Below are positions 46,678 through 62,844 of a stretch of DNA of 64,000 bases, in pieces; the stretch's first letter is position 1, and each line of letters starts with the position of its first letter. The stretch covers positions 672,001-736,000 of the forward strand of contig CBDATS010000004.1 in the NCBI GenBank assembly GCA_965200245.1. The letters are read 5' to 3'. The DNA comes from a bacterium (GTDB taxonomy: Bacteria; UBA8248). Position numbers and translations under genes: made by a program. The notes beneath the pieces were generated by a model. That model worked only from the letters and a program-made list of their open reading frames with translations. It was not told where the DNA came from and did no database searches.

Positions 46678-48783
46678 CTACTGTTTCCGCGCACCGAATG
46701 CGCCGGCGATACCGAGTTGCTTACCACCAGACAAATCATCGACTTTCTGGAATTCGCCCACCACGACGGGGGGAGGCATATACTTGCCTGTGGGCCGCAT
46801 CTCCCCATTTACATCCATCATTTTCGCCATACCCATCCCGAAGAACCGAGCTGCCTTCAAAGCACCCCCAGCCTTCGGGTCGATTGATCTACTCCCGATA
46901 GCGCCCTCCAACATCACTTCCATATCGGCATCCGGCTTCATGCTTTCTCCTGCAGGCACGCTGGGCATGAAGTCAAATCCCATCACTTTCCCGGAGACCG
47001 TCATGCCCGGCACCCCATCACTTGTCTCCATACTACCGAAATTAGCAGTCAACTCCACATCCGCCGTGAACGTTCCGGAGGTCGCCTGTTCAACCTCAGT
47101 CATAGCACCATCGGCCAACATATGCATCTTGTACGCATACACGCCCGCAGCGTTACCCTCATAGGTCGCGTCGCCCTCGATTTTATCGAAGAAAAATCGA
47201 TTGCTACTCGATCCTCCCGTCGGGTCAAGCCGGGAACCGGCGAACGTTTCGACAGAGGTATAATTTTCCACATAGCCATCTGGTTGATTCGTTCTCACCC
47301 AGAAACCGTAATAGTAGTAGTCCGTGTCCAGAACACCTACCATGTAATCGGGATCAGGGATGAAATGCCAACCTAGAAAATTGGCGCCCAGTTTTCCTGC
47401 AGCGTCGAAAGTAGCTTGACAACCAGCATCTCTCACGCACTCGAAGGTTCCCAGCACTTTGGTACCGGTGTAAGCTGTACTGTAGGTGTCATCAAATGTT
47501 CCGGGGACCGTATCGCCTTTAGCGAAATCGGCTCGTCTCGCATCTCCCCCAGTGGATAGGTCGGGGCTGAATCCTCCGATACGGGCGGGGTTGATAGTAC
47601 TGTGGATCGCACGGGCAGTTCCGCCTTGTGCAGTGCTAAAGTCTCGGCCGGTGACCTTTTTGTACGCCGTGCTGTGCGCCGTCATCTCAGGCTCGTCAAT
47701 GTCACTATGCAACACCAGGATTTCAACAGCGCTCGAAGCTGGTATAATCACTTCATTTTTGAAAGTGAACATGTTGGGGTTCCCGGGCACCGGTTTGAAG
47801 GCTCTTGCTGCTTTCGTGGTACTCCCAGGGTTGAGAAGTCTGGTGGCGCCGAGCATCGCAGGATCGTCATCCCTGCGCGAAATGGACAACTCGTAATCGC
47901 CACTATTATTCTCCAAGAACCGGCGTTCTCTACCTTCGGGGCCATTGGTATTGGCATTCATGATGGCCGTATACTTCAAACTGGCCGCAGCCGTCACCGC
48001 ATTCATCGCCGCCGTCCTGACTTTCATGGCAGCTTCATCTGCCTTGTCCGCCTCCGCCTCCGCCATATCCGCGTTAGCTTCGGCGTCCTCCAAATCCCTG
48101 TCAGTCATAACCATGGCAGGATCCACCATGTCCGCATATTCCGCCGCCTTGGTGTTGGCCATGGTCATCGCGTCACGGTCTGCCTTCATGGCGGCATTTA
48201 CATAGCCCATATACATACGGTCCGTCTCGTCCACGGCCATCTGCGCACGATCCTTGGCTGCCATCGCATCCGTCCCGGCTTGAGTTGCACCGGCCGTCAG
48301 CATTTCGTGCGCGCCTTCCACCTCGGCGACTTTCCCGTCCTCCGGATCAGTCAAACGAGCCAGCAACGCCACCGCATCGGCCGATCTTGCTTCTGCCTGG
48401 CTCTGATACATCTGGGCCATGGCCACATCTTCGGTGTCGTCCGCCAAGTCAGCCGCTGCCCTCGCCGCCCCCGCCGCTTCCTGCGCAAGATCATTCAATT
48501 CTTCCGCTGCGCCATAGGCTTCCGGTGCGGCACCCATCTTGCCCGCCAAGGCAGCGAATGCCACAGCAGCACTAGACGCTGCCGTCTCCGCCGCCGTAGC
48601 CGCCACCCCCGCCTGCTCCTGGGCCATCGTGAGCGCAGGGTCTACCCCAGCAGGAGGAGGAGGACCGCCGCTACCGCCACCACAACCGGCCAACGTCAGC
48701 GTTCCAAGTAGCACGAAAGCTGCCACGGCACCGGTCAACCCGGAAGTTCCCTTTCTGAATACAGCGAATAAACTAAACAGCAT
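46678..48783 (-). CDS. surface lipoprotein: Ala-rich helical stalk plus TbpB-like C-terminal beta-barrel
   Basis: Lipobox LAGC, then GGGSGG; ATYEGNAAGVY, GTFTADVELTANFG, terminal AGAFGARKQ. Confidence 0.8.
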   Translation of the reverse strand: MLFSLFAVFRKGTSGLTGAVAAFVLLGTLTLAGCGGGSGGPPPPAGVDPALTMAQEQAGVAATAAETAASSAAVAFAALAGKMGAAPEAYGAAEELNDLAQEAAGAARAAADLADDTEDVAMAQMYQSQAEARSADAVALLARLTDPEDGKVAEVEGAHEMLTAGATQAGTDAMAAKDRAQMAVDETDRMYMGYVNAAMKADRDAMTMANTKAAEYADMVDPAMVMTDRDLEDAEANADMAEAEADKADEAAMKVRTAAMNAVTAAASLKYTAIMNANTNGPEGRERRFLENNSGDYELSISRRDDDPAMLGATRLLNPGSTTKAARAFKPVPGNPNMFTFKNEVIIPASSAVEILVLHSDIDEPEMTAHSTAYKKVTGRDFSTAQGGTARAIHSTINPARIGGFSPDLSTGGDARRADFAKGDTVPGTFDDTYSTAYTGTKVLGTFECVRDAGCQATFDAAGKLGANFLGWHFIPDPDYMVGVLDTDYYYYGFWVRTNQPDGYVENYTSVETFAGSRLDPTGGSSSNRFFFDKIEGDATYEGNAAGVYAYKMHMLADGAMTEVEQATSGTFTADVELTANFGSMETSDGVPGMTVSGKVMGFDFMPSVPAGESMKPDADMEVMLEGAIGSRSIDPKAGGALKAARFFGMGMAKMMDVNGEMRPTGKYMPPPVVVGEFQKVDDLSGGKQLGIAGAFGARKQ

Positions 48784-51104
48784 CGGATGATTCCTCCTCG
48801 ATAATCCGTGGGGGAGAAACCCTGTTCTGAGAGGGTCTCCAGTCAAACTCAAAATGTCTTCCCGTATTCCCTAAAATCATTCAGTCCAGATTTCAATTTC
48901 TCATTATTTCGGTCGGTTTGTCAAACCCCCTTCCCCGCCAACCTCCTTTCTCCTGAATTCCAGCCTGTTTCCTTCTCCGTGACAGGTCGGTTTCCGTATA
49001 TCTCCCGATCAATCACAATCCGCCCTGTTTGTGCGAAGAACGGAAAATACCGACCGAGAACGGGCAGCCTTCCAAGGTGATACTCTGTCTGCAGGTCAAT
49101 CTCTCTCACGCCCTACACCAGCCATCATGAGAAGCGGGCGTCGGGATTCCGCCACAATTCATCAACAAAAAGGGAAACTGCCGGGGCGGAAAAATTCTCA
49201 GGAAATATTCACACATGCAAATTAGACCCATGTCCACGGAAAAGTCAAGTGCTTTTGTGGGACGGGGGAACGATTCTGTTTTTCGCCCTTGCCGTGTCCT
49301 CCCGTCCAGGCCCCGTCCACTGATTCGCGGTTTCGCTGCAGGGCAACTTCCCCCTCCCGGTTCTTCGGAAAAGCGATCGATCCGGGCACCCCGCCGAGCC
49401 TGAAACAAGGCACGACACTGCCGATACCCGGACGTGCGATGTCCTCGCACATCATCCTGCCGGCCATGTTCCCCCTTTCCGTCGGACACGGGCGTGTTGA
49501 CAGCCACAACCCTGTCCTCGCGGGAATCTCTCCCCGGTCTGTTCCTCCTTCCCGTTTCCGGCTGGCCAGGAGGCCGTCCTTCAACTTATAAGAAACCACA
49601 CGGGACGCAGTTCGGCGGGGGCAAACCAGACCTGCCCATATTTGACTGACACGGATGCAGGAAAGATTCGTTCAGGTTCGCCGATGGCTGAATGGAACAG
49701 CTTCAATACGCCGAATCAACTGTCAATCGAGGCTGACCCTCCTATATGAGAATCAGAAGCCTGAAACCCGGATTGGGCGGCAGGTTGTGTGACCGGATCT
49801 GATTGGGCCATCACCATTGTGCCCGCATAGGGCGTGCCCCGGACATGGGGAGAAATCGACACCGCGAAAGGAAACAGGATCAGCCGGATGTACAATCATG
49901 AAACAGCCGAACTGCCGACTCCCTCTGAAACATTAACCCGAATGACCAAATCGCCGGAGTTCTTCCATCCATGGAGCATCATGCTCACTACCTGTCCATA
50001 AACGAATTTGACTATCGCCCGGACGACTCTTTTTTGCACGAAAACCCCCTGCCAGGACTAATCAACCCATTGTTCGGTGCGGCATTCAAAATGGTCGGTT
50101 CATCCGTTCCGGGATATCGTATCGTATCCCCGCATTCTGTAACCGTCATGAGAAGTTACGCAGCCCGGAAATGACATCAATAAGGCAGCGTGTCTGGACT
50201 CTTTCAATTTCACTGCGAACGGATTCATGCTCATGGTCACTCCAGTGTGCGCGTGAACAATGTGTTCCCCTGGTCTTATCTTCACTGCGATCAAGGTCTT
50301 TTCGTGGCGGATTCTGCAGGGAGATTCGGTGAGACCACCTGCCGGCCCGCTTGAACCGCGTCGTGGACCGGAGCCGACTTCGTGAGGAGGTGGTGGATTG
50401 GGATGGGCGGCATGAGCGTCGGCCGGGTCATCAGCACTGGGGAGAGCAGTGATTCGGGGAGAGATTCCCTCGCAAGGTGCGTCGGGATACGCAGGTGGAA
50501 GAGATTCACATGGATACCTTCTGGATTCGTACAGGGAGGGTCACAGGGGAGCGTCACGTGGATGAAGGGAAGGCGGAGGGCGTCGTGTGGCGCATAAACG
50601 ACGAAGGAGGATCGCACAGATACGGACGCGCGCGTGGCGATGCCGTGTACGCGGGCAAAACTCCTGTGCCCTGGCTGCGTCCGTGGACGTTTCATTCCCC
50701 GCACGCGTGTTTGCCGAAGACACACAGGAACAGAAAGAGGATTCTCTCGCGTGCTTATCCAGCAGCGGCGAGCCACCTCAAGTGGCTCGCCGCTGCCCTG
50801 GTTGCCGGATGATATACCTTGCTGAAAACTTCGGTCCGAGCAGATTTCAAAAATCCCGGACGACCTGAAAACCCTGATGTGTCGTCGTGCTGTCGGGCAA
50901 ACTGCCTGTTCGAGCGGCAATCCGGTATCTATTGCAACAGGGAATTACGGTCTTCTTGGCTGATTTCATATTCCGCAACGATACCTTCGCCAGGTTCTGT
51001 TGGAGTGAAATTAAAGCTGCAGGTAGACAGTGCCGAGTCAAGTGTACAAGCCTGAAATTACTCCTGCTTTCAGCTACGTCCGATTACAGAAACACTGGAA
51101 ATTA

Positions 51105-51323
51105 TCATCTCTTCTGCCGCAATTTGTTTCGAAAATTCTCAAGATGAACACTCTCCGAACCAGGTTTTTCTTCTTTTTCGCGAGAACTTTTCAGACTATT
51201 AAGTACAGACAAATGAGGCATCCGTTTCAACATTTGATCCATGAAACGCCGCTCATCTTGGGAAATACCGGCACTCGTTCTCTTGCCTGAATTTCGGGCT
51301 TCTGGTTTATGGATCCTCCTCAT
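51105..51323 (-). CDS. small basic hypothetical protein overlapping the Ntn hydrolase stop
   Basis: GGAG-rich RBS and overlap with 51307..52635. Confidence 0.45.
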   Translation of the reverse strand: MRRIHKPEARNSGKRTSAGISQDERRFMDQMLKRMPHLSVLNSLKSSREKEEKPGSESVHLENFRNKLRQKR

Positions 51324-52635
51324 TCTCTCTCCCCCAGTCGGTTGTATTTTGACGATACTTTTCAAAGTAGCGATGGTTTAGCTCCGCTTTGAAATAGTGC
51401 TTTCTGTTGATCCATATAAAACCATCGCCTTTGGAAATCACGGCGACATCAATTGGTTCTCCTACGGTCTCGGTTCCCAATGACAATTGTTTCTCGAAAG
51501 AACTTAAATTCACGAGTGTGGAGGCTACTTTCGCTAGCTCCTTAAGTGGCAGTGCCTTCACGACCTTTAATATACCGTCAAATCTTTTGAGACGCGACAA
51601 CTTGATCCTGTCATGAAATTCATCAGTTGCTTGTGTGCTCGCAGAGTTAACGAGATCGATTAGCTCTGCTTTTATCTCATCAGGGAGGCCTTCAATAGAT
51701 TTCAGGGCTTCCAGAGGAACTCCCCGGATAAGAGGTCCAGCTCTTTCAATTTCATCCAGGATTGGTTGATTAACTCCATATAGAAATCCATCTATAGTTT
51801 GCGTATCAGCAAAGGACTCAACGTAAGAAGGACACTCATCAGACACATTTTGCGAAACGGGTCCACTGAATTTAAGGATATTGCCATATATTCCGTGAAT
51901 AGTTATGTGTTGAACGACAGGGAAGTGCTCGCTTTGGCCAAATCCACCGATCACCAATCCAGTATATGTCTCAGGGATCGGAGAGTCTTTAAGAATAAAA
52001 AGCCGAGCAAGACGATATAGGAGTTGAATATCGTTAGAATCGATAGGCCAATCCGAGATCGTCTTCATAATTACACGATGGATTTCTCCAGACAATTTTG
52101 ATGTAAAGTCATTCACCAGTTCATCGCTGAATTCATTCGCGTCGTCGAGTGCCTCCCAGATAGCTACGCGGTTCTCAATAGCTTCGCGGATGATGGCGGC
52201 TCGCTTTTGCTCCCATGCTCCTTCTCCCGAGAGTTCTGATAACGGCACCAAATTAAGCAATTCACCCGCATCAAATATTACATTACGGCACTCAATTTCA
52301 AAATCATGACAGAAGTAATTTTCTTGAACGTTTTCTGGAAAGAGATTTTGGCTATTGCGAAGAAAACATATTAGTTCTCGGCCAAACCCTTCGAGTTCGT
52401 CGAAATTTCTGTTGCCAAGGTTTTTGCGAAACAACTTGATGATGGTCTCCCAGGGGACACCGAGGAGTGAGGCATCGTTGTAGACCATTATTCCCACTGG
52501 ATGGTATTCAGACAGCATGAAGAGTTTTGCGACGGAATCATGGTGCTTGTAGACGCCACCAGTATTGACAGTAACTACGCTGTCGGCTGCGAGTGCAATG
52601 CCCATGCGATTCATTACCACGACTTCGGATGTCAC
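51307..52635 (-). CDS. proteasome-beta/HslV-like Ntn hydrolase with large helical insertions
   Basis: After Met removal: Thr1, AAD17S, K36LF; LVIGGFG; TVGEPIDVAVISKGDG; AGGAG RBS before GTG. Confidence 0.7.
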   Translation of the reverse strand: MTSEVVVMNRMGIALAADSVVTVNTGGVYKHHDSVAKLFMLSEYHPVGIMVYNDASLLGVPWETIIKLFRKNLGNRNFDELEGFGRELICFLRNSQNLFPENVQENYFCHDFEIECRNVIFDAGELLNLVPLSELSGEGAWEQKRAAIIREAIENRVAIWEALDDANEFSDELVNDFTSKLSGEIHRVIMKTISDWPIDSNDIQLLYRLARLFILKDSPIPETYTGLVIGGFGQSEHFPVVQHITIHGIYGNILKFSGPVSQNVSDECPSYVESFADTQTIDGFLYGVNQPILDEIERAGPLIRGVPLEALKSIEGLPDEIKAELIDLVNSASTQATDEFHDRIKLSRLKRFDGILKVVKALPLKELAKVASTLVNLSSFEKQLSLGTETVGEPIDVAVISKGDGFIWINRKHYFKAELNHRYFEKYRQNTTDWGRENEEDP

Positions 52636-52777
52636 AGGATTCTCCTGAAAAATGAAGATCTATGCCCAGGCGATGACAGGCCTAAGAATCCATCCATCGG
52701 TTGGGGGGCCTTGCCAATGATGTATAAGTGGCGGTCGATGGTTGATATAGAATTAGGTTTCATAATTATACCAAACA

Positions 52778-53218
52778 TTAATCGTCTGTGTCTCTATTCT
52801 TGAGAATGCCAATACGAATAAGTCTGGCAATCAATGCATCAACTTCAGATTTGGTGGGTTCTTGCTTGGCAGAAAATGCCATTCGAACCTGCTGTGGCAG
52901 GCTGACCCGGCTAGCAACAAGAACTTCAAGTAGTTTCTTCCGTTCCTTTGGGTCGTCAGGAACAACTCGCGATGCAGACTCCGACTGTCCTTTCTCGAAG
53001 TCTAAAGACACATCCCCAGCAGGGGATGTTGAAGAAGAATCATCCATGCTTAGAAACGTGTGGATATTCGAATTAACTAGCGCGCGAATGTCTTCAATGT
53101 GCGAAAACAAGTTCGCATCCTCAGAGAGGATTTCGAAATCATCAAGTTTTAGGATTTCATTCTCAAGACCTGAAAGGAGTGCATCCAGGTGGTGTTGTTC
53201 TTTCAGTCTAGCGTTCAT
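52778..53218 (-). CDS. hypothetical protein coupled to the sigma factor (possible anti-sigma/partner)
   Basis: ATGA overlap with the sigma gene. Confidence 0.65.
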   Translation of the reverse strand: MNARLKEQHHLDALLSGLENEILKLDDFEILSEDANLFSHIEDIRALVNSNIHTFLSMDDSSSTSPAGDVSLDFEKGQSESASRVVPDDPKERKKLLEVLVASRVSLPQQVRMAFSAKQEPTKSEVDALIARLIRIGILKNRDTDD

Positions 53219-53793
53219 TGGCTCATTCTCCTGTCCGCAAATTCCCGGGCAAGTTTCCGACGAATTCGCCTTTGAGTCGTAGCATATCGCTTGGAACTCA
53301 TTTGGGCTTTTTCTTGAATTTCGTTCGGTGATTCACCGACAGCCATACCAATAATGACGTGCATCGCTTCGGGATCCCCCTGAAAAACTTCCTCGATCTT
53401 CGCAAGAGCCTCGGTAGCGAGCATCTGCCGCTCAGGATTAGTGATTGGGTCGGGAGCACTCTCAAGGATGTGATGTTCAATGTCGTCGAAACGGGGCAAC
53501 TGGGCTTCCGAGAGAACCGGGGCATTGTTTTTACGACGCCAATGCTCGCTTGCGATACTCCGCATCGTTTCTCTTAAAAATACCACCATAGAGATATCTT
53601 TAGGCCAACGCCTTGTGCCGTCGAGTAGCCTGACAACCGCGTCGTGAAAAAGGTCTTGCCAGTCTAGATCGTTGAGTCCAATAATCCGAATATGAGCAAT
53701 ACGTTCTAGCCGTCTAATATCCGCATCAGTTAGATTGCGCAATGCGTGTGCAATTTCTTTCTGTGATGCTATTTTACGGTTAGAAACTACCAT
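53215..53793 (-). CDS. sigma-70/ECF-like factor
   Basis: DLFHDAVVRLLDGTRRWP...FL..TMRSIAS..R (region 2-like); C-terminal HTH. Confidence 0.75.
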   Translation of the reverse strand: MVVSNRKIASQKEIAHALRNLTDADIRRLERIAHIRIIGLNDLDWQDLFHDAVVRLLDGTRRWPKDISMVVFLRETMRSIASEHWRRKNNAPVLSEAQLPRFDDIEHHILESAPDPITNPERQMLATEALAKIEEVFQGDPEAMHVIIGMAVGESPNEIQEKAQMSSKRYATTQRRIRRKLAREFADRRMSQ

Positions 53794-54147
53794 TCTCAGC
53801 CTCTTCGGAATTATCTCATCTTATATATGCGGAGAAGTCGCACCCTTGCGGACATCTGCACGAAAATATCCTGAATATCCTGGATGACCGTCTTTTTTCG
53901 GCACTCACTGAAACATTATAGTTCTTTTATACTGCAAGGGGTTACGGTGAGGAAAAGTTAAAGGTAATGGACTCAATGGGGCCTCTTCTCGAGCCTGTGA
54001 GATTTATAATGAGAGCGTCGACTTTTCTTACAGCACATAATCCCCTGAAACAATAGGAAAATTAAACCTCACAAGCTATGTCCGAATTCTCGATTTTCGT
54101 CAGCATAATAGATTGAACCTCAAGTGGTCGCCCAATATAAGGAGGAC

Positions 54148-54798
54148 ATGAAAGTGAATAAAACTCATGAATACAAAATCCAGATCGATAAAGATATTTT
54201 TTCTGTCGACCACCCAATCCTGACCGGACGTGAACTCCTTGAAATCGCGAAAAAGGAACCGGTCGAACAGTTTGCAATTTATCTCAAGGTCAAAGAAGGA
54301 TCACCTCAACGCATTGAGGCTAATGCAAAAGTGGATTTGCGAAATCCTGGTGTTGAACGGTTTGTGACTCTGCCACTCGACCAGACAGAAGGATTCGGTG
54401 GTCGTCAGGAGTTTACACTGCCGCAAGATGATATCGACTGGCTGTGTAATACAGGCTTAAACTACGAACTCGTTTCCGAGGAGAGCGTACTCCGGGTGGT
54501 GTTGTATGATTTTCTTGTGCCTCCCGGTTATAATCATAACGAAGTCGATGTGAACGTCCGTATCGACCCCGGCTATCCTGATACTCAGATCGACATGGTA
54601 TATGTATATCCGCCATTAGCCCGAGCAGATGGGCGACCGATGCATGCGCTCTCGCAAGATCCGTTCGACGGTAAAATCTGGCAGCGCTGGAGTCGTCATC
54701 GGACTCCAGCGAATCCCTGGCGACCTGGAATCGATAACCTCTCGACCCATTTTGGTCTTATTGAGGAATGGTTCTCTCGAGAACTAAGGAAGGCCTGA
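54148..54798 (+). CDS. multiubiquitin-type Ubl fused to prokaryotic E2 (family E)
   Basis: LTGRELL..A...VDL..PGVERF.T...QTEG, then PPGYN, PGYPDTQIDM, WQRWSRHR, WRPGIDNL.TH; AGGAGG RBS. Confidence 0.88.
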   Translation: MKVNKTHEYKIQIDKDIFSVDHPILTGRELLEIAKKEPVEQFAIYLKVKEGSPQRIEANAKVDLRNPGVERFVTLPLDQTEGFGGRQEFTLPQDDIDWLCNTGLNYELVSEESVLRVVLYDFLVPPGYNHNEVDVNVRIDPGYPDTQIDMVYVYPPLARADGRPMHALSQDPFDGKIWQRWSRHRTPANPWRPGIDNLSTHFGLIEEWFSRELRKA

Positions 54799-54802
54799 CA
54801 TT

Positions 54803-56200
54803 GTGGCAGGAGTAACGCTTACCCTAACAGCAGACCAACATGCAGAATTGAAACAACACCTCTTTCCCGATGACAGATGTGAAGCAGTAGCAATCGCACT
54901 TTGTGGACGACGGGCTGATCAACAACGGCACCGACTACTCGTTCGCAAAATTATCCCTATACCTTATGATGCCTGTTCACTAAGGCGACCTGATCGTGTG
55001 ACCTGGCCAACCAACTTACTCCCGCCACTTCTTGAAGAAGCTACCCAACTCGGACTAGCGGTCGTAAAGATTCACGGTCATCACAGTTTTTCATATTTTT
55101 CCGAGACAGACGATGAGTCCGACAGCACTCTATTTCCATCGATTTACGCGTGGACCGAAAACGGTCCCCACGCTAGTGTTATTCTTTTTGGCGATGGACG
55201 TATGATCGGACGGGAAGTGGACGAGAACGGCAAATTTCGCCCGCTTTTGTCAATCAACATTGTCGGAGACGATCTTGTTTTTTGGCATTCAAATAATCAG
55301 AGTAGTTTGGTTCCAGAATTTGGACGGCGGGTTGCCCAGACGTTTGGAGCAGATACCTATGATCGGCTACGCAAATTGCGAGTTGCAGTAATCGGCTGCT
55401 CGGGAACTGGAAGCCCTGTCATCGAGCAACTTGCACGAAACTGTGTTGGTACGCTCGTACTAGTCGATCCCAAGCGTATAAAAGAGAAAAACTTAAACCG
55501 CATTCTTAATGCCACAATGATTGATTCACAGGAACAACGTTTCAAGGTAGAGGTTGCAGCACGCGCGGTTTTAGAAATGGGGCTTGGGACGATAGTGGAA
55601 ACACATCCGAAAAGCCTTTTCGACCAAAATGCTGTATTGGCTGTAGCAAACTGTGATGTCGTTTTTGGTTGTATGGACTCTGTCGACGGTCGCCATCTTC
55701 TCAATAAACTTGCTACATTTTACCTTCTTCCGTATTTTGATCTCGGGGTAAAGATCGAGGCCGATGGTTCAGGTGGGGTAGACCAAGTGTGTGGAACAGT
55801 TCACTACTTGCAACCTGGAGGTTCAAGTCTCTTAAGTCGACATGTCTACACTTTAGAACAAGTTCGGTCCGCAGGTCTCCAAAGAACCGATATTGCAGCA
55901 TATAGCTCGCAAGTGGATGAAGGGTATATCCGAGGCGTTCAGGAGGAAAGACCAGCTGTAATTCAACTGAATGCCTTGATTGCCAGTCTAGCTGTCAACG
56001 AATTTCTTGCCCGGCTTCACCCATATCGGCTCGATTCAAATAAAGAATATGCTATACACCGCCTGAGCTTGAGCCATGGCATCTACGAGTACGAGAGTGC
56101 TGTCGAGGCATGTTCTTTGCTTAATCGGCATGTTGGACGCGGGGATGTAAAACCGCTCCTGGAATGGCCTGAACTTAGCTTTGATGGAGCAAAAGTGTGA
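54803..56200 (+). CDS. JAB/MPN peptidase fused to E1/ThiF adenylation domain
   Basis: EAVAIALCG...HGH...FSETD; VIGCSGTGS, NLNR, GCMDSVDGR. Confidence 0.9.
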   Translation: MAGVTLTLTADQHAELKQHLFPDDRCEAVAIALCGRRADQQRHRLLVRKIIPIPYDACSLRRPDRVTWPTNLLPPLLEEATQLGLAVVKIHGHHSFSYFSETDDESDSTLFPSIYAWTENGPHASVILFGDGRMIGREVDENGKFRPLLSINIVGDDLVFWHSNNQSSLVPEFGRRVAQTFGADTYDRLRKLRVAVIGCSGTGSPVIEQLARNCVGTLVLVDPKRIKEKNLNRILNATMIDSQEQRFKVEVAARAVLEMGLGTIVETHPKSLFDQNAVLAVANCDVVFGCMDSVDGRHLLNKLATFYLLPYFDLGVKIEADGSGGVDQVCGTVHYLQPGGSSLLSRHVYTLEQVRSAGLQRTDIAAYSSQVDEGYIRGVQEERPAVIQLNALIASLAVNEFLARLHPYRLDSNKEYAIHRLSLSHGIYEYESAVEACSLLNRHVGRGDVKPLLEWPELSFDGAKV

Positions 56201-56571
56201 ATTTGGCGGCGCGTGCTTGGTATTGGTTTATTGACTTAATGCGTCCTCATGACGCCTTCGCAACTGAAGTCGTAGGCAATTTTCCTGAAGTCCTTGAGCC
56301 CAATAAGATATATTTGATTGGCCGCAACTCAGTTCTATGGTTCGCTGCTCTAGTCTGCCCATGCGGTTGTGGAGCATCTATTCAACTGAGTCTCATAAAA
56401 GATGATAACCCGCGATGGCGCGCAAAGCGTCATTTCAACGGCACGGTTACTCTTGAACCATCTATTTGGAGAAAAAAAGGGTGCCGAAGCCACTTCTTCC
56501 TTAGGCACGGTCGGATTATTTGGGGATCAAGAAAACTCAACGCCAAATTACCAAGAAATGTGAGACGCTAG
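56197..56571 (+). CDS. DUF6527-like Cys/His metal-binding protein
   Basis: CPCGCG...L.PSIW...GCRSHFFL..G.I.W; GTGA overlap with the E1 gene. Confidence 0.85.
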   Translation: MNLAARAWYWFIDLMRPHDAFATEVVGNFPEVLEPNKIYLIGRNSVLWFAALVCPCGCGASIQLSLIKDDNPRWRAKRHFNGTVTLEPSIWRKKGCRSHFFLRHGRIIWGSRKLNAKLPRNVRR

Positions 56572-58596: not shown

Positions 58597-59413
58597 TTAC
58601 TGCGAGTTTCCTCCGCTCCTGGTGTCGCCCTTCCATGGGTCGCCCGGTAATCGCGCGATCAGCCGGGAGCGGACGCTCTCGGCGGCCTTTTCACCATCCC
58701 AGGAAAATCCAATGGCGAGAAGCGGGCCGATGTCGGCATTAAATTGCGTATCGCGCAACTTCGCTTCGATGTTCTGATCGAGCCGGGCACGCGTCACGTC
58801 GTGGCCGCCTCGCTCCATATACTTCGAAAACGCGGCAACAACCCGATCCGGGTCGAGCGCCGTTTCCTCGAGTGCGACCGCAAGATCGAAAAGATCGCGG
58901 CCTTTACGGCGCTGGTAGAGAGCCCGCAGCCTGGTGGCCGGCAACTCCTCGAGCACATACGTGGTGATCTCGCTGCGGCCCTCGAACCAGCGCGGGGAGA
59001 CAGTGAACGGCAGCCGCGTGTACCCGCGAATTAATTTCCACCTTCAGCCGGAGCGGAAGGGGCGGCACATCCTCGGACTCGAAGCGGTAATTGAACGTCA
59101 CGCGCCCTTCGGTCTATTTGTATTGTGGTTTCCCAAGCCAGGGATCCAGCACTTCCCGAACCGCGTCCATCATCGGCCCGGCTGGCCCGGCCCTGACCTG
59201 TACAAGATCGATGTCCTCCGAATAGCGTGCCGGAGGATGAATGTGTAGTCTGTAGAGTGCCGTACCGCCACGGAAGGCCAGCGCTTCTTTAAGGAGCGGG
59301 TGATGGAAAATCGCAATCAACGCCCGGCTGATGACTGGGTCTTGCTCGACCTGGGAATCCTGCACCCATGGCGCCTGCGCCCGCCACTCGGTGATAAAGT
59401 CGCGCGGGATCAC
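58597..59413 (-). pseudogene. AbiEii nucleotidyltransferase toxin, split
   Basis: QVEQD..ISRAL, AFRGGTAL, RYSEDIDL; TAG at 59114; LKVEIN; frameshift; RALYQRRKGRDLFD. Confidence 0.85.
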
Positions 59414-60213
59414 AAGTCCGGCTCCACGACGGCGTTGACGGAAAGCTTCCAGTCCGCATCGCGAGGCGCTTCTTCGCTGGATGCACCAGGGACAAGCGGA
59501 ACCGTTCGTCGGGCTTCACTCTCGACATAGGCTTTCAGAGGAGCGATTCGTTCACGTGCATCGACAAGCACGAGCAGGTATCCAAGCCTCTGCGCCCACG
59601 TAATCGGCGCGGTCTTCGCTGCCGCCACCAGTTTTTGGGGATCGATCTGCCCCGCGAGTTCGGAGAGGATGGTCGCCACCTGGTCGAGCCCGCCCACGTG
59701 GTGGTGATAGCCGACGAGATCGACGGCCGTTGCTTCAGGTGTCGAAACCCGGATCGTGCCACGAGGCGTGTTGAAGGTTTGTACGGATATATTCCGAAGG
59801 CGCTTGCGGACGATGAATACCACGCGCACCCGGCCGCAATGGATCGGCCGGCGGACCTCCTCGATCAGCACCTGGAATTCCTGGGGCCGGTGATGGGCCG
59901 CGCCGTGGTATTGCGCGGCTGAAAGCAACCCGGAATAGTAGGGTCGCCCGAGCCGCTGCATCAGCGCCGGGATGAACTGGTCCGCTGGCAGACATTCCAG
60001 AGAGAGGTATTCCGGCGGAACGATTACATGGAAGCCACGGGCGGGCTGGGCGATCATGTTCTGCCGGGACAGCCGGTTCAGGGCGAGTTTGGCGGCGTCC
60101 GCGGACACGCCGAGCACCTCACGAGCTTCACTCGAAGTAAAGTCATAGCGCCCGGCAGCGAGGAGGTCTCTGATATAATCTTTGGCATATAGTCGGCGTG
60201 AACTTATTATCAT
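59410..60213 (-). CDS. AbiEi antitoxin
   Basis: PARGF.VIVPPEY, YY.GLLSAAQYHGAAH, STPEATAVDL. Confidence 0.88.
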   Translation of the reverse strand: MIISSRRLYAKDYIRDLLAAGRYDFTSSEAREVLGVSADAAKLALNRLSRQNMIAQPARGFHVIVPPEYLSLECLPADQFIPALMQRLGRPYYSGLLSAAQYHGAAHHRPQEFQVLIEEVRRPIHCGRVRVVFIVRKRLRNISVQTFNTPRGTIRVSTPEATAVDLVGYHHHVGGLDQVATILSELAGQIDPQKLVAAAKTAPITWAQRLGYLLVLVDARERIAPLKAYVESEARRTVPLVPGASSEEAPRDADWKLSVNAVVEPDL

Positions 60214-60561
60214 GTGCGCAAAGTGTCATTTTTTGATTCTTTATGCAATTAGATTGAACCTTCCTCACGCTGTAACGGTTTTGGATAGGACCAGGATTGG
60301 TGTGCATGTCCTGACAATACGAATATCAACATGACTTCAGGGCTGGGAGAATCGACTCGATGTATCTAAACTCTGGGCACAACCAGTCGGTGCGAGCATA
60401 TTGCAGGATGAGAGTATCGAGTTGAATAGACTAGCCGACAGTTCCCAATGATATGGATAGAGAAGAGGATTACACTTCCGACAATAACACCTCGCCACGT
60501 CTATATGAGCGGACCCTGGTGTCCATCCTGGGGTTTGGAGGGCACTCAGCGGTGAATCTGT

Positions 60562-62844
60562 TTATTCATTCCCGCTTTCTTCTTGAAACGTGTTCACAAG
60601 CTCCACCATCGCCTTATAATGTCCATCGTCTTGTGATTTCATCAGTTCCAAGAGATATTGAAGCACAAAGGGAGCTTCAGAAAGTAGATACGGATCATGC
60701 TCCGGCTCAGCGATGGAATCGTTATGGGAATTTGTGTGCAAGAACCCTAAAATCCGTGTTTTCTTAGCTTCATCGAAGTCCACTTCTTTTAGCTTCTTCC
60801 ATAAATCACCACCCACTTGAGGTCGACGGAATGCGAGAAACCCTTCCAAAAGGCGTGCCAGGTTTGGAAACACATAATTCTCCTCAAGTGCTCTCTCTTG
60901 AGATTCTCGTGCCTCGTGGTAGATACGAACGAAAAGATAGTGATAATCAGATTCGTACCTCTCAAGAAGCGGGTCCAGCCAACATAAAGTCGAAGAACGC
61001 TGACCCTCATCAAATTTCCACTCAAGCATGTAGAACCGAGCAGGGCGTTGGTTAGGATCTCTTTTCCTTTGCCCTGGTAAATGGTGGAACCAATTCCTTA
61101 CCTGTCTAAAGAAGGTGAAATTATGCGTCAGAATGAACAATTGTGCTGCATTTTGTGTGCGTTCTTTGATAAAGCCGAAAGCAAGGTAGAGGGCATTGGC
61201 ATCAAGACTGGAAACAGGATCATCCAGCACCACTACGCCGTTGGTCAAGTCGAAATCCTGATCTTGAAGAGATTTTAGAAAATAGAGTAAGGCGATAGCT
61301 GTGGTTTCCCCTTCGCTCAGGGCCTTTGCCGGAGTGCCGTTTCGTGTGATCTCATAACCCGTATCCTTAACGTCTAATCGCAACTCTCTATGACCGAGGT
61401 ATTTTTGAATATCATCCTTGAGTTCCTCGGCTGGCTTGCGGTGCTGCACAATATCGCGCTCAAGCTGTGCGATTTTCTCTTGAAGATGAACTACCTCGCC
61501 GGATGCTTCGGCGACAGCCGAATCGGACTCCTTGATACCATTTTGCAATTTGCAAAACTCCTCCGATGCAGACGAGACCAAGTGGTTCGCCAAACGGCAC
61601 CTCGCCGTAGCTACTTGGGCATTAAAATTGTCACACCTGGCGTTATGCTTTTCCAAAATGTTGTTCACACTATCAATGATGCCAAGTTCCACTTGTGGCA
61701 TGGACATATCAAGGGTGTAACTTTCAAAGACCCGCTCTTTTTTCCTTTCCAGCGTTTTGACTAGTTCGCCGAGAAAGCTCCTTATTTTACCTAATACTTC
61801 ATTAAACCTACGACGAACAATTTCGTAATACTCAGCAAGATCGTCGTAGAATTGGGCGGGAACCGGAAGTGACAAGTTTGTAGCAGCCTCTGACGCATTT
61901 TGAAGATGTTCGATTTCCGCATCAACACTTTCCAAAAATTGGCCATACTCGGCACTGAAGTGGGCATTGAGACTTAATAGTCGATTTTCCGGAAGCTTTT
62001 GCTCGCAGAAGAGGCACTCGCTGGCGTGACGCGACTGATGTAGGCCAAGGCCTTGACGGACCCAAGATGATAGCTCTTGATCTTCTTTTAGCGATTGGAT
62101 GGCCTCTGAAACGACCGTTTTCTTCAACAAGTTCGACACTATTTCCATCCGGACTGGAAACGAAGGAAACTGATACGAAATCTCATCTAACCTTTCTTTC
62201 TTTGTGGCCTGATGTTGCGCTCTTGCTTTTTCTCTTTCATCTTCACTTAATTGGTGCGAAATTGCCTCTCCCGAATCCCGCATGGTCTGTGCCAATTGGC
62301 GATAATCGGCTTTATCGAAATTGTTGTAAACATTATCCCCTGATGATCTAAGTGTTTGCTTGATACGTCTCGCTTGCTCTATGCAATGCCGATCAAAGAG
62401 ATTTTTGGCGCTTGATTCCTGTTCTCTATTTTGCTGTAGCTTTAAATTTGCTTGCTGAAGTTTAGCATTGAGTCGATCGATTTCTTTTTGTTTTTCAACG
62501 CTTTCTTCGCCGAGTACAAAAATCGGGGGTATTTCGCCACCACCCGTCTGAAAAACACTATCCGCTATGAAGTCACGGTTAAACACGCGGATAGGGAGTG
62601 TCGATTGCTCGAAATTAGAACCATTAACATGATTCCCATTAATCGACAGAACTACATCGCATTCTGATTCGAGAGATTCTTGTTTCTCAACAGCATGGAA
62701 GATTCTGCTGAGAGTTGTTTTTCCTGACCCGTTCCAGCCATAAATCAAGTTATAATGCCCGAAGTTATACATTTCTCCCGGCCAAGTGAAATCGCGCAGG
62801 ACTCCAGGATGTTTTAATTTTATAATTCGCTCTATATTGCTCAC
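60562..62844 (-). CDS. AAA_13/RloC-like ABC ATPase with zinc hook and C-terminal HEPN-like domain
   Basis: GWNGSGKT, VFNRDF, CLFC, LSEGE, VLDDPVSSLD, LTHN, RLLEGFLAF...FLHTNSH. Confidence 0.85.
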   Translation of the reverse strand: MSNIERIIKLKHPGVLRDFTWPGEMYNFGHYNLIYGWNGSGKTTLSRIFHAVEKQESLESECDVVLSINGNHVNGSNFEQSTLPIRVFNRDFIADSVFQTGGGEIPPIFVLGEESVEKQKEIDRLNAKLQQANLKLQQNREQESSAKNLFDRHCIEQARRIKQTLRSSGDNVYNNFDKADYRQLAQTMRDSGEAISHQLSEDEREKARAQHQATKKERLDEISYQFPSFPVRMEIVSNLLKKTVVSEAIQSLKEDQELSSWVRQGLGLHQSRHASECLFCEQKLPENRLLSLNAHFSAEYGQFLESVDAEIEHLQNASEAATNLSLPVPAQFYDDLAEYYEIVRRRFNEVLGKIRSFLGELVKTLERKKERVFESYTLDMSMPQVELGIIDSVNNILEKHNARCDNFNAQVATARCRLANHLVSSASEEFCKLQNGIKESDSAVAEASGEVVHLQEKIAQLERDIVQHRKPAEELKDDIQKYLGHRELRLDVKDTGYEITRNGTPAKALSEGETTAIALLYFLKSLQDQDFDLTNGVVVLDDPVSSLDANALYLAFGFIKERTQNAAQLFILTHNFTFFRQVRNWFHHLPGQRKRDPNQRPARFYMLEWKFDEGQRSSTLCWLDPLLERYESDYHYLFVRIYHEARESQERALEENYVFPNLARLLEGFLAFRRPQVGGDLWKKLKEVDFDEAKKTRILGFLHTNSHNDSIAEPEHDPYLLSEAPFVLQYLLELMKSQDDGHYKAMVELVNTFQEESGNE

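Follow-up and report, generated by a model that had tools for sequence, protein, structure and literature searches.

A six-gene cassette that sets a Type I Bub ubiquitin-like conjugation operon beside a divergent sigma factor, its predicted anti-sigma factor and a predicted proteasome-beta-type peptidase

A divergent locus of six genes

Our analysis concerns a 64,000-nt stretch of bacterial DNA (contig CBDATS010000004.1; the whole stretch is called the window below) and, within it, the region at 51105..56571, where two short operons diverge from each other. One of them, on the + strand, is a Type I Bub operon, which encodes the machinery for conjugation of a ubiquitin-like protein (Ubl). The other, on the - strand, encodes a divergent sigma factor resembling those of extracytoplasmic function (ECF), a predicted anti-sigma factor and a 442-residue protein that we assign, from its modelled fold, to the proteasome-beta-type N-terminal nucleophile (Ntn) hydrolases. 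Judged by comparative sequence analysis, these six genes very probably travel together across phyla, with their parts as identified here. The features of the region, including open reading frames (ORFs) and promoter-like sites, are the following.

51307..52635, - strand: 442-residue proteasome-beta-type Ntn hydrolase (PMI-like), predicted from fold and active-site register
52778..53218, - strand: 146-residue predicted anti-sigma factor, from the complex model and its position next to the sigma factor
53215..53793, - strand: 192-residue divergent ECF-like sigma factor with an N-terminal extension of ~45 residues (TIGR02937)
54124..54798, likely start ATG 54148, + strand: BubAB, a Ubl-E2 fusion (Multi_ubiq, Prok-E2_E)
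54803..56200, + strand: BubCD, a JAB peptidase fused to an E1 adenylation domain (ThiF, Citrobacter BubCD)
56197..56571, + strand: BubE (DUF6527), a Ser-His protease with a C4 zinc site (PF20137)
53826..53854, - strand: promoter-like motif TGTCCG-N18-GCATA toward the sigma operon (motif scan)
54079..54107, + strand: promoter-like motif TGTCCG-N18-GCATA toward the Bub operon (motif scan)
52765..52794, - strand: sigma-70-like promoter match (consensus scan, 10/12 matches)
51105..51365, - strand: 86-residue ORF, doubtful as a gene, overlapping the peptidase 3' end by 59 nt

BubAB and BubCD are separated by 4 nt and BubCD overlaps BubE by 4 nt, and on the opposite strand the start of the 146-residue gene overlaps the sigma stop codon by 4 nt, giving translational coupling of both genes; the peptidase gene begins 142 bp past the 146-residue gene. 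The six ORFs are beyond chance because each has same-order relatives in about 20 other genomes. The G+C content is 0.46-0.50 across the cassette versus 0.57 on either side, and scans of the region with Rfam and for tRNAs and repeats found nothing.

The + strand carries a Type I Bub operon

Operons of the '6E/DUF6527' kind have been renamed Bub, with BubAB, BubCD and BubE making up Type I (6E.1) (Ye et al., bioRxiv 10.1101/2024.11.21.623953). In the accessible part of this preprint, conjugation is described as an oxyester relay that runs from an E1 tyrosine to an E2 serine, DUF6527 is shown to be a Ser-His protease, no phage-defence phenotype is found and the fate of BubA-tagged proteins is left open; a companion paper considers bacterial Ubl conjugation unlikely as a degradation signal. 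In the window, Pfam finds Multi_ubiq (E 2.6e-13) and Prok-E2_E (E 9.3e-35) within the single ORF of BubAB, ThiF (E 7.8e-27) and a weak Prok-JAB match below its cut-off (E 0.0027) in BubCD, and DUF6527 (PF20137, E 7.2e-23) in BubE. Among the Citrobacter chains, BubCD (9ea4_A) aligns with the window's BubCD over its whole length (E 7.8e-82 across residues 3-459), BubB (9eav_D) with the E2 half of BubAB (E 7.8e-19) and BubA (9ea8_B) with the Ubl of BubAB (E 6.3e-4). The 2023 PADLOC library contains no Bub model, and BubCD is matched there by CBASS-type E1-E2 models only.

The published functional residues of BubCD and BubE are retained. E27, H91, H93, D103 and Y375 of BubCD align with the published E28, H91, H93, D104 and Y370, allowing for a 2-residue offset in the chain numbering of 9ea4_A; BubCD keeps the JAB metal site and has a tyrosine, Y375, where the E1 cysteine would be. 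In BubE, C54/C56/C58/C96, S89 and H99 are spaced identically to the published C57/C59/C61/C99, S92 and H102. The Ubl of BubAB is a single beta-grasp domain ending in F-G-G (G93), immediately before the BubB-like part. ATG 54148, which is preceded by an AAGGAGG Shine-Dalgarno site, is the more likely true start of BubAB than 54124, because the upstream motif extends to 54107 and the alignment of relatives sets in at about residue 10. In six other cassettes (L026, L027, L029, L032, L046 and L077) Ubl and E2 are not fused but occupy two overlapping ORFs, the break falling at about residue 90-94, at the G-G end of the Ubl.

The 442-residue protein has a predicted proteasome-beta fold

The peptidase gene starts with GTG-ACA, reading M-T-S-E, behind an AGGAG Shine-Dalgarno site. 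Neither the single sequence nor a profile of it has a sequence match in Pfam (E<=0.1), NCBIfam, PADLOC or the PDB, and PF00227 (Proteasome) in particular is not matched at that Pfam threshold; the PF00227 cluster, which scored 0.89 in the ESM Atlas, served as a lead only. An AlphaFold2 (AF2) model built on an alignment of 91 rows reached a pLDDT of 90.2; an earlier input of 38 close relatives had left the conserved N and C termini below 50, a defect that the 91 rows mended. With this model, all matches listed by Foldseek are chains of 20S proteasome subunits or Anbu (best E 1.7e-4). VIA-align, run against 48,161 representative chains, placed 20S beta subunits first (Z 16.6, root-mean-square deviation 3.6, 184 of 201 target residues aligned), with scores of 16.5 for Anbu, 13.6 for BPH, 12.2 for HslV and 11.8 for connectase, and residue 2 of the model falls on residue 1 of the mature chain in 20S beta, Anbu, BPH and HslV alike. 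An alignment by hhalign to 26 HslV sequences sets T2/D18/K37 on T1/D17/K33, a weak match (P 0.0046) of which only the N-terminal 45 residues are meaningful.

Residues N9, A16, D18, S19, K37, K67 and S401/G403/D404/G405 are invariant across the 91 sequences, at least 90% of which retain M1-T2, and M-T/S-x-E/G-I/V stands at or near the ORF start in 71 of the 80 genome loci described below. Two helical inserts, at residues ~101-222 and ~290-362, interrupt the modelled core. From the model, the 442-residue protein is a proteasome-beta-type Ntn hydrolase, with Thr2 the predicted nucleophile after removal of the initiator Met; since sequence models give no match, its membership of the proteasome family rests on fold and active-site register. 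The family is large: of 7999 proteins scored, 4243 reach E<=0.001, and the few source names given read 'hypothetical'. Fuchs, Alva and Lupas (2021, PMC8665760) have described 22 new proteasome homologs, among which we find the closest parallels to this protein.

A sigma factor, its predicted partner and a motif common to both operons

The assignment of the sigma factor draws on TIGR02937, matched at E<=0.001 by 11 of the 23 members of its family; four of the 23 match Sigma70_r2 at E<=0.01, the window's copy not being one of them, and a profile search of the PDB gave no sequence match. The 146-residue protein, whose sequence has no Cys, matches nothing in Pfam, NCBIfam or PADLOC. Its best profile match in the PDB, COP9 subunit 7b (E 0.006), was judged helical noise. 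A complex model of the two proteins scored an ipSAE of 0.87, the best control reaching 0.09; of 157 solved complexes, 116 come up to the mark applied to this score, as do 2 of 215 mismatched pairs. The runs have at least 73% of their contacts in common, with a partner pLDDT of at least 54. In the model, partner residues 7-56 contact sigma residues 11-39, 46-85 and 126-182, that is, the N-terminal extension, region 2 and region 4, while the C-terminal half of the partner, which carries a conserved R-M-A-F-S motif, remains free. The modelling thus supports binding of the 146-residue protein to the sigma factor in an anti-sigma manner.

Both operons are preceded by TGTCCG-N18-GCATA, a motif that occurs exactly twice in the 64 kb (0.13 expected; none of 100 shuffles reaches two). 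With up to one mismatch allowed, 20 of 22 cassettes have it before the sigma operon, 18 before the Bub operon and 18 before both, and the spacer measures 18 nt in 37 of 38 sites. Between the two divergent motifs lie 224 bp in the window (53855-54078), whereas most other cassettes have ~30-70 bp there. Across the genome, exact copies number 5, compared with 7 for the reversed control; this is no enrichment, and further members of a regulon cannot be named. We infer that the sigma factor probably drives both operons from TGTCCG-N18-GCATA and is held by the anti-sigma factor until a signal of stress or infection arrives. The 142-bp gap before the peptidase gene contains no terminator-like site, and the gene may be transcribed both by read-through and from a promoter of its own. 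Short contigs from the metatranscriptome runs X6 and X7 are identical to the window over portions of three genes, namely the peptidase gene, BubCD and, at its 3' end, BubE; none of them bridges 52635-52778, so they decide nothing on co-transcription, and carry-over of DNA is possible.

These results bear on an earlier note on this DNA, made from the letters alone. Its + strand operon of Ubl-E2, JAB-E1 and a DUF6527 protein is borne out by the Pfam and Citrobacter chain matches, and the class that it called poorly characterised is Type I Bub, with biochemistry described in the preprint of Ye et al. Its '442-aa Thr-initiated protein', described there as proteasome-beta-like, agrees with the fold match and with the placement of Thr2 on the Thr1 position, and its sigma-like factor with a coupled partner agrees with the 4-nt overlap and the predicted complex. 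Its suggestion of a dedicated sigma factor for the module is favoured by the motif before both operons and by the predicted sigma/anti-sigma pair. The tag-and-destroy module that the note proposed would have to work without an AAA+ unfoldase from the cassette, none being encoded among the six conserved genes.

The six genes form a conserved cassette

A scan of genome contigs returned at least 454 relatives of the peptidase, from which 80 loci were kept; the window's phylum is represented in the searched set by 51 species genomes. Using the window proteins in tblastn, the sigma factor was found at 20 of the 80 loci, and BubAB, BubCD and BubE at all 19 sigma-bearing loci with enough upstream flank; the remaining one, L017, has 1.5 kb of upstream sequence only and stands outside the 19. 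Gene order and orientation are constant across cassette loci. Between sigma factor and peptidase lies an ORF of 101-149 residues in 19 of 20 loci, mostly overlapping the sigma stop codon, and this middle ORF is followed by the peptidase gene after 3-123 bp in the other genomes, which makes the 142 bp of the window the widest such gap. The full cassette is also present on two distinct metagenome contigs (L121-123 and L124) and on the Mesorhizobium plasmid NZ_AP023255.1, where RefSeq names the three - strand genes 'hypothetical protein'. By record title the hosts are Alpha-, Beta- and Gammaproteobacteria, and one of them, Ca. Multivorans, is labelled Acidobacteriota in the tree. A neighbourhood survey of this kind had been proposed in the earlier note, and its outcome is that the closest peptidase relatives do co-occur with a Ubl operon, at 19 of 19 loci with enough flank.

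In a tree of 72 full-length peptidases, from which 9 partial rows were left out, the linked peptidases fall into one clade (SH-aLRT 100) made up of 19 linked rows and one unlinked row, L002. Pairwise distances of peptidase, BubCD, sigma factor and BubE correlate (r 0.66-0.80, over 190 non-independent pairs from 20 cassettes), as expected for a cassette inherited as a unit. In the closest relative, L117-120 (77% identity), sigma factor, partner and peptidase are all present. The end of its contig holds a large 5'-open ORF of 230 residues (L118:1-694), which may be reverse-transcriptase-like. The peptidase gene is split in L007 and L020 (131+341 and 194+194 residues), by possible decay or assembly error. 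The plasmid-borne cassette, L197 (NZ_AP023255.1:462331-473605), adjoins a toxin-antitoxin pair of an Xre-family regulator and a RES-family NAD+ phosphorylase.

Peptidase, sigma factor and DUF6527 outside the cassette

The link between peptidase and Bub is subtype-specific, on the evidence of the genomes compared. DUF6527 occurs in 17 of 401 sampled Pseudomonadota genomes, and the 16 of these other than the centre genome have no peptidase. Five same-genus genomes with DUF6527 contain no full-length relative of it, and two of these five have a C-terminal peptidase fragment, 80 kb and 1.1 Mb from their DUF6527 genes. The sigma family is present in 2 of 23 genomes examined, both of which carry the cassette; one further partial sigma match among the same 23 lies 15 kb from a DUF6527 gene. 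Where Bub genes are missing, the neighbours of the peptidase (91 of 95 nearest neighbours scanned) are mixed and include housekeeping genes, integrases and methylases.

Relatives of the peptidase on the phage side come from Streptococcus phage satellites and from Streptococcus, Providencia, Porphyromonas and Stenotrophomonas phages; those listed (H11-H20) share 27-33% identity, some of the matches lying near the end of the record. The plasmid relatives (H1-H10) come from rhizobial, Pantoea, Ruegeria and Enterococcus plasmids. All listed phage and plasmid relatives are annotated as hypothetical, except one with no annotated feature. In 10 non-cassette loci (L037, L043, L052, L056, L057, L062, L066, L069, L074 and L076), a conserved ORF of ~63 residues (cluster c5), unrelated to the window's 86-residue ORF, lies directly 3' of the peptidase gene. 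In an actinobacterial metagenome-assembled genome, a distant peptidase relative from outside the clade (L061:4977-7154) lies ~3 kb from a second Ubl system, composed of a Multi_ubiq-like ORF of 81 residues, an ORF of 130 residues and a ThiF E1 of 517 residues, and preceded by a divergent pair of HTH_3 and Peptidase_M78 proteins (CapH/CapP-like). This proximity could be an independent pairing of the two families or a coincidence within a defence island.

Surroundings of the cassette in the window

Genes of defence type lie beyond BubE, at 58597-62844: an AbiEi antitoxin (59410-60213), an AbiEii toxin broken into two ORFs (59114-59413 and 58597-58956) and a 760-residue AAA_13 protein (60562-62844). 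On the other side, an ORF of 724 residues (46678-48852), rich in Ala, lipoprotein-like at its N terminus and unmatched in Pfam, is followed downstream by an ORF-poor stretch at 48.9-51.1 kb. All ORF coordinates given in the earlier note hold. Of its 'six to seven intact ORFs', six are conserved and the seventh, at 51105-51365, is doubtful: this 86-residue ORF has no family match in Pfam, NCBIfam or PADLOC, and its one counterpart, 60% identical, is a single sequence in the four records L117-L120, a 77%-identical metagenome relative, with none at the 80 genome loci. On the 'eroded island' in which the note placed these genes, the analysis covered two features: AbiEii is in two ORFs, and the cassette is lower in G+C than its flanks.

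Discussion

Our results are best explained by a mobile six-gene cassette consisting of two divergent operons with one promoter type, an account that, taken as a whole and with its mechanism included, we regard as possible rather than probable. In the mechanism that we tentatively favour, the tagging machinery and the peptidase would be made together once the sigma factor is released. BubCD would free BubA at its G-G end and, with BubB, conjugate it to targets through the published oxyester relay, and the Thr1 peptidase would cleave the BubA-marked proteins. Cleavage would probably be site-specific rather than processive, since no unfoldase is encoded in the cassette and the helical inserts speak against a closed barrel. 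With its free C-terminal half and its conserved RMAFS motif, the cassette's own anti-sigma factor would be the prime candidate substrate, and its cleavage would give positive feedback. It is tempting to go one step further and to propose a minimal ubiquitin-proteasome-like circuit that dispenses with an unfoldase, whereby BubA tagging and cleavage of the anti-sigma factor release the sigma factor and amplify the response, but this fuller version we think unlikely.

A number of observations weigh against this mechanism or against single parts of it. That the peptidase works in the Bub pathway is itself an inference. None of the six conserved genes encodes an AAA+ unfoldase (Pfam, tblastn), the cassette already encodes two deconjugating or processing peptidases, JAB and BubE, and inserts at the two sites seen in the model are expected to block ring and double-ring assembly (Fuchs et al. 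2021, PMC8665760). A full-length peptidase is found in none of 21 other DUF6527-bearing genomes; conversely, 60 of the 80 peptidase loci have no Bub genes, the peptidase mostly standing alone in varied contexts, and relatives of it occur in 13 records of phages or satellites and in 10 of plasmids. The linked clade is set apart by only 3 specific residues, and L002 lies inside that clade, yet has neither sigma factor nor Bub genes. In L117-120, no Bub gene is present within 1.1 kb upstream of the sigma factor, where the contig ends. As for the regulatory part, the sigma factor scores below the TIGR02937 cut-off (37 bits against 42.9, E 2.5e-9), and the score of the sigma/anti-sigma complex may owe something to likeness with solved pairs of this kind. 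Finally, the 142-bp gap has at its start GAGACA-18-TATAAT with a TG extension (10/12 matches), which is weak evidence for a separate promoter because 12 sites of this kind occur in the region, compared with 8.7 in shuffles.

Part of this evidence can be turned into other models of the locus. The peptidase might be a regulatory protease that cleaves the anti-sigma factor on a signal and with no BubA tag, Bub being the output of the regulon. Such a role, which we consider rather unlikely, would account for the position of the peptidase in the sigma/anti-sigma operon and not in the Bub operon, for the occurrence of the sigma family only together with the peptidase, for the persistence of the triplet of sigma factor, anti-sigma factor and peptidase in L117-120, and for the free C-terminal half of the anti-sigma factor with its conserved motif. 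However, the contig of L117-120 simply ends and Bub may lie beyond, and because most family members have no sigma factor nearby, anti-sigma cleavage is not the general job of the family. To a similar degree we doubt that the peptidase is an independent effector, a self-sufficient accessory or defence protease under the same sigma factor as Bub and without biochemical contact to it. The size of the family, the loci without Bub, the relatives on phages, satellites and plasmids and the three clade-specific residues all suit such a protein, whereas a fixed cassette with correlated divergence and a common promoter across Alpha-, Beta- and Gammaproteobacteria and other phyla is seldom seen for unrelated effectors. 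The reverse relationship, in which the peptidase would be a client of Bub that is switched by BubA conjugation and switched back by JAB and BubE, appears improbable: control of the CBASS cyclase by Cap2/Cap3 provides a precedent for conjugation-controlled effectors and the conserved linkage is compatible with it, but the peptidase bears no conserved clade-specific surface.

It is more improbable still that the peptidase acts as a ligase or transpeptidase, forming a connectase-like acyl intermediate in an E3-like last step of the oxyester relay. Connectase, which is among the fold matches, is described as a proteasome-family ligase (Fuchs et al. 2021, PMC8665760), and Bub works through oxyesters and has no E3 in the accessible part of the preprint (Ye et al., bioRxiv 10.1101/2024.11.21.623953). 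According to the same sources, Bub conjugation proceeds in E. coli without such a peptidase and connectase lacks helices H1 and H2, which are present in the window's peptidase; moreover, most Bub operons have no peptidase. There is hardly any room left for the view, raised in the earlier note on account of the 142-bp gap, that the peptidase is an unrelated neighbour whose adjacency is an accident of a defence island. The gap with its sigma-70-like promoter match and the nearby AbiEi, split AbiEii and AAA_13 genes would agree with it, but it is contradicted by the same order and orientation in 19 of 19 loci with enough flank, on two metagenome contigs and on one plasmid, by the single clade of linked peptidases and by the motif common to both operons.

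Bub and PMI-like homologs are each known, and we have not found their conserved coupling under a sigma/anti-sigma pair in print. A literature search, subscription journals and bioRxiv supplements lying outside its scope, gave no report of a link between Bub and a peptidase, nor, in the literature searched, of a proteasome-family peptidase as the third gene of a sigma/anti-sigma operon; Table S1 of Ye et al., searched by columns and words, has no sigma, ECF or proteasome entry. Two gaps meet in this cassette, as far as the accessible parts of both papers extend: the fate of BubA-tagged proteins (Ye et al.) and the function of the new proteasome homologs (Fuchs et al.). The cassette offers both fields a concrete hypothesis, namely that bacterial Ubl tagging feeds a proteasome relative, and it has cultured carriers, which by record title include Rubrivivax gelatinosus, Bradyrhizobium archetypum, Sphingomonas agri and Novosphingobium hassiacum, besides the Mesorhizobium plasmid. 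Should the peptidase act on tagged proteins, Ubl conjugation would be coupled to a relative of the proteasome beyond the archaeal, eukaryotic and Pup systems, with consequences for our view of how tagging came to be joined to proteolysis by the proteasome family. Otherwise, the cassette would still be the first Bub subtype with an identifiable ECF-type regulator, together with a predicted anti-sigma factor of a new family.

Comparison with known systems

The + strand of the window has the same three genes, with the same fusions and in the same order, as Type I Bub, to which the cassette adds a proteasome-family peptidase. The regulators published for Bub are CapW/BrxR (8%) and CapH with CapP (31%) in the accessible part of the preprint (Ye et al., bioRxiv 10.1101/2024.11.21.623953), whereas the window cassette has a sigma/anti-sigma pair. 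Compared by description, its peptidase shares with PMI-3 and PMI-4 a proteasome-beta core, long inserts after H1/H2 and between H3/H4 and the lack of a propeptide, and with PMI-4 a spread over many bacterial phyla, Euryarchaeota and phages (Fuchs et al. 2021, PMC8665760). In the accessible part of that paper, no genomic context that hints at a function is reported, whereas here one clade has a fixed context. Like pairs of an ECF sigma factor and a cytoplasmic anti-sigma factor, the two regulatory genes are coupled, a motif pair precedes their own operon and the partner is predicted to sit between regions 2 and 4; unlike them, the 146-residue partner matches none of the known anti-sigma families and the sigma factor scores below the cut-offs of curated models.

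The Pup-proteasome system of Actinobacteria, the archaeal SAMP/Ubl-proteasome system and the eukaryotic ubiquitin-proteasome system each combine a tag, conjugation machinery and a Thr1 peptidase of the proteasome family. The cassette differs from them in the absence of an alpha subunit and of an AAA+ unfoldase, probably in the absence of a barrel, and in the oxyester chemistry of its tag, and yet, within six genes, it likewise encodes a tag, conjugation machinery and a predicted Thr1 peptidase.

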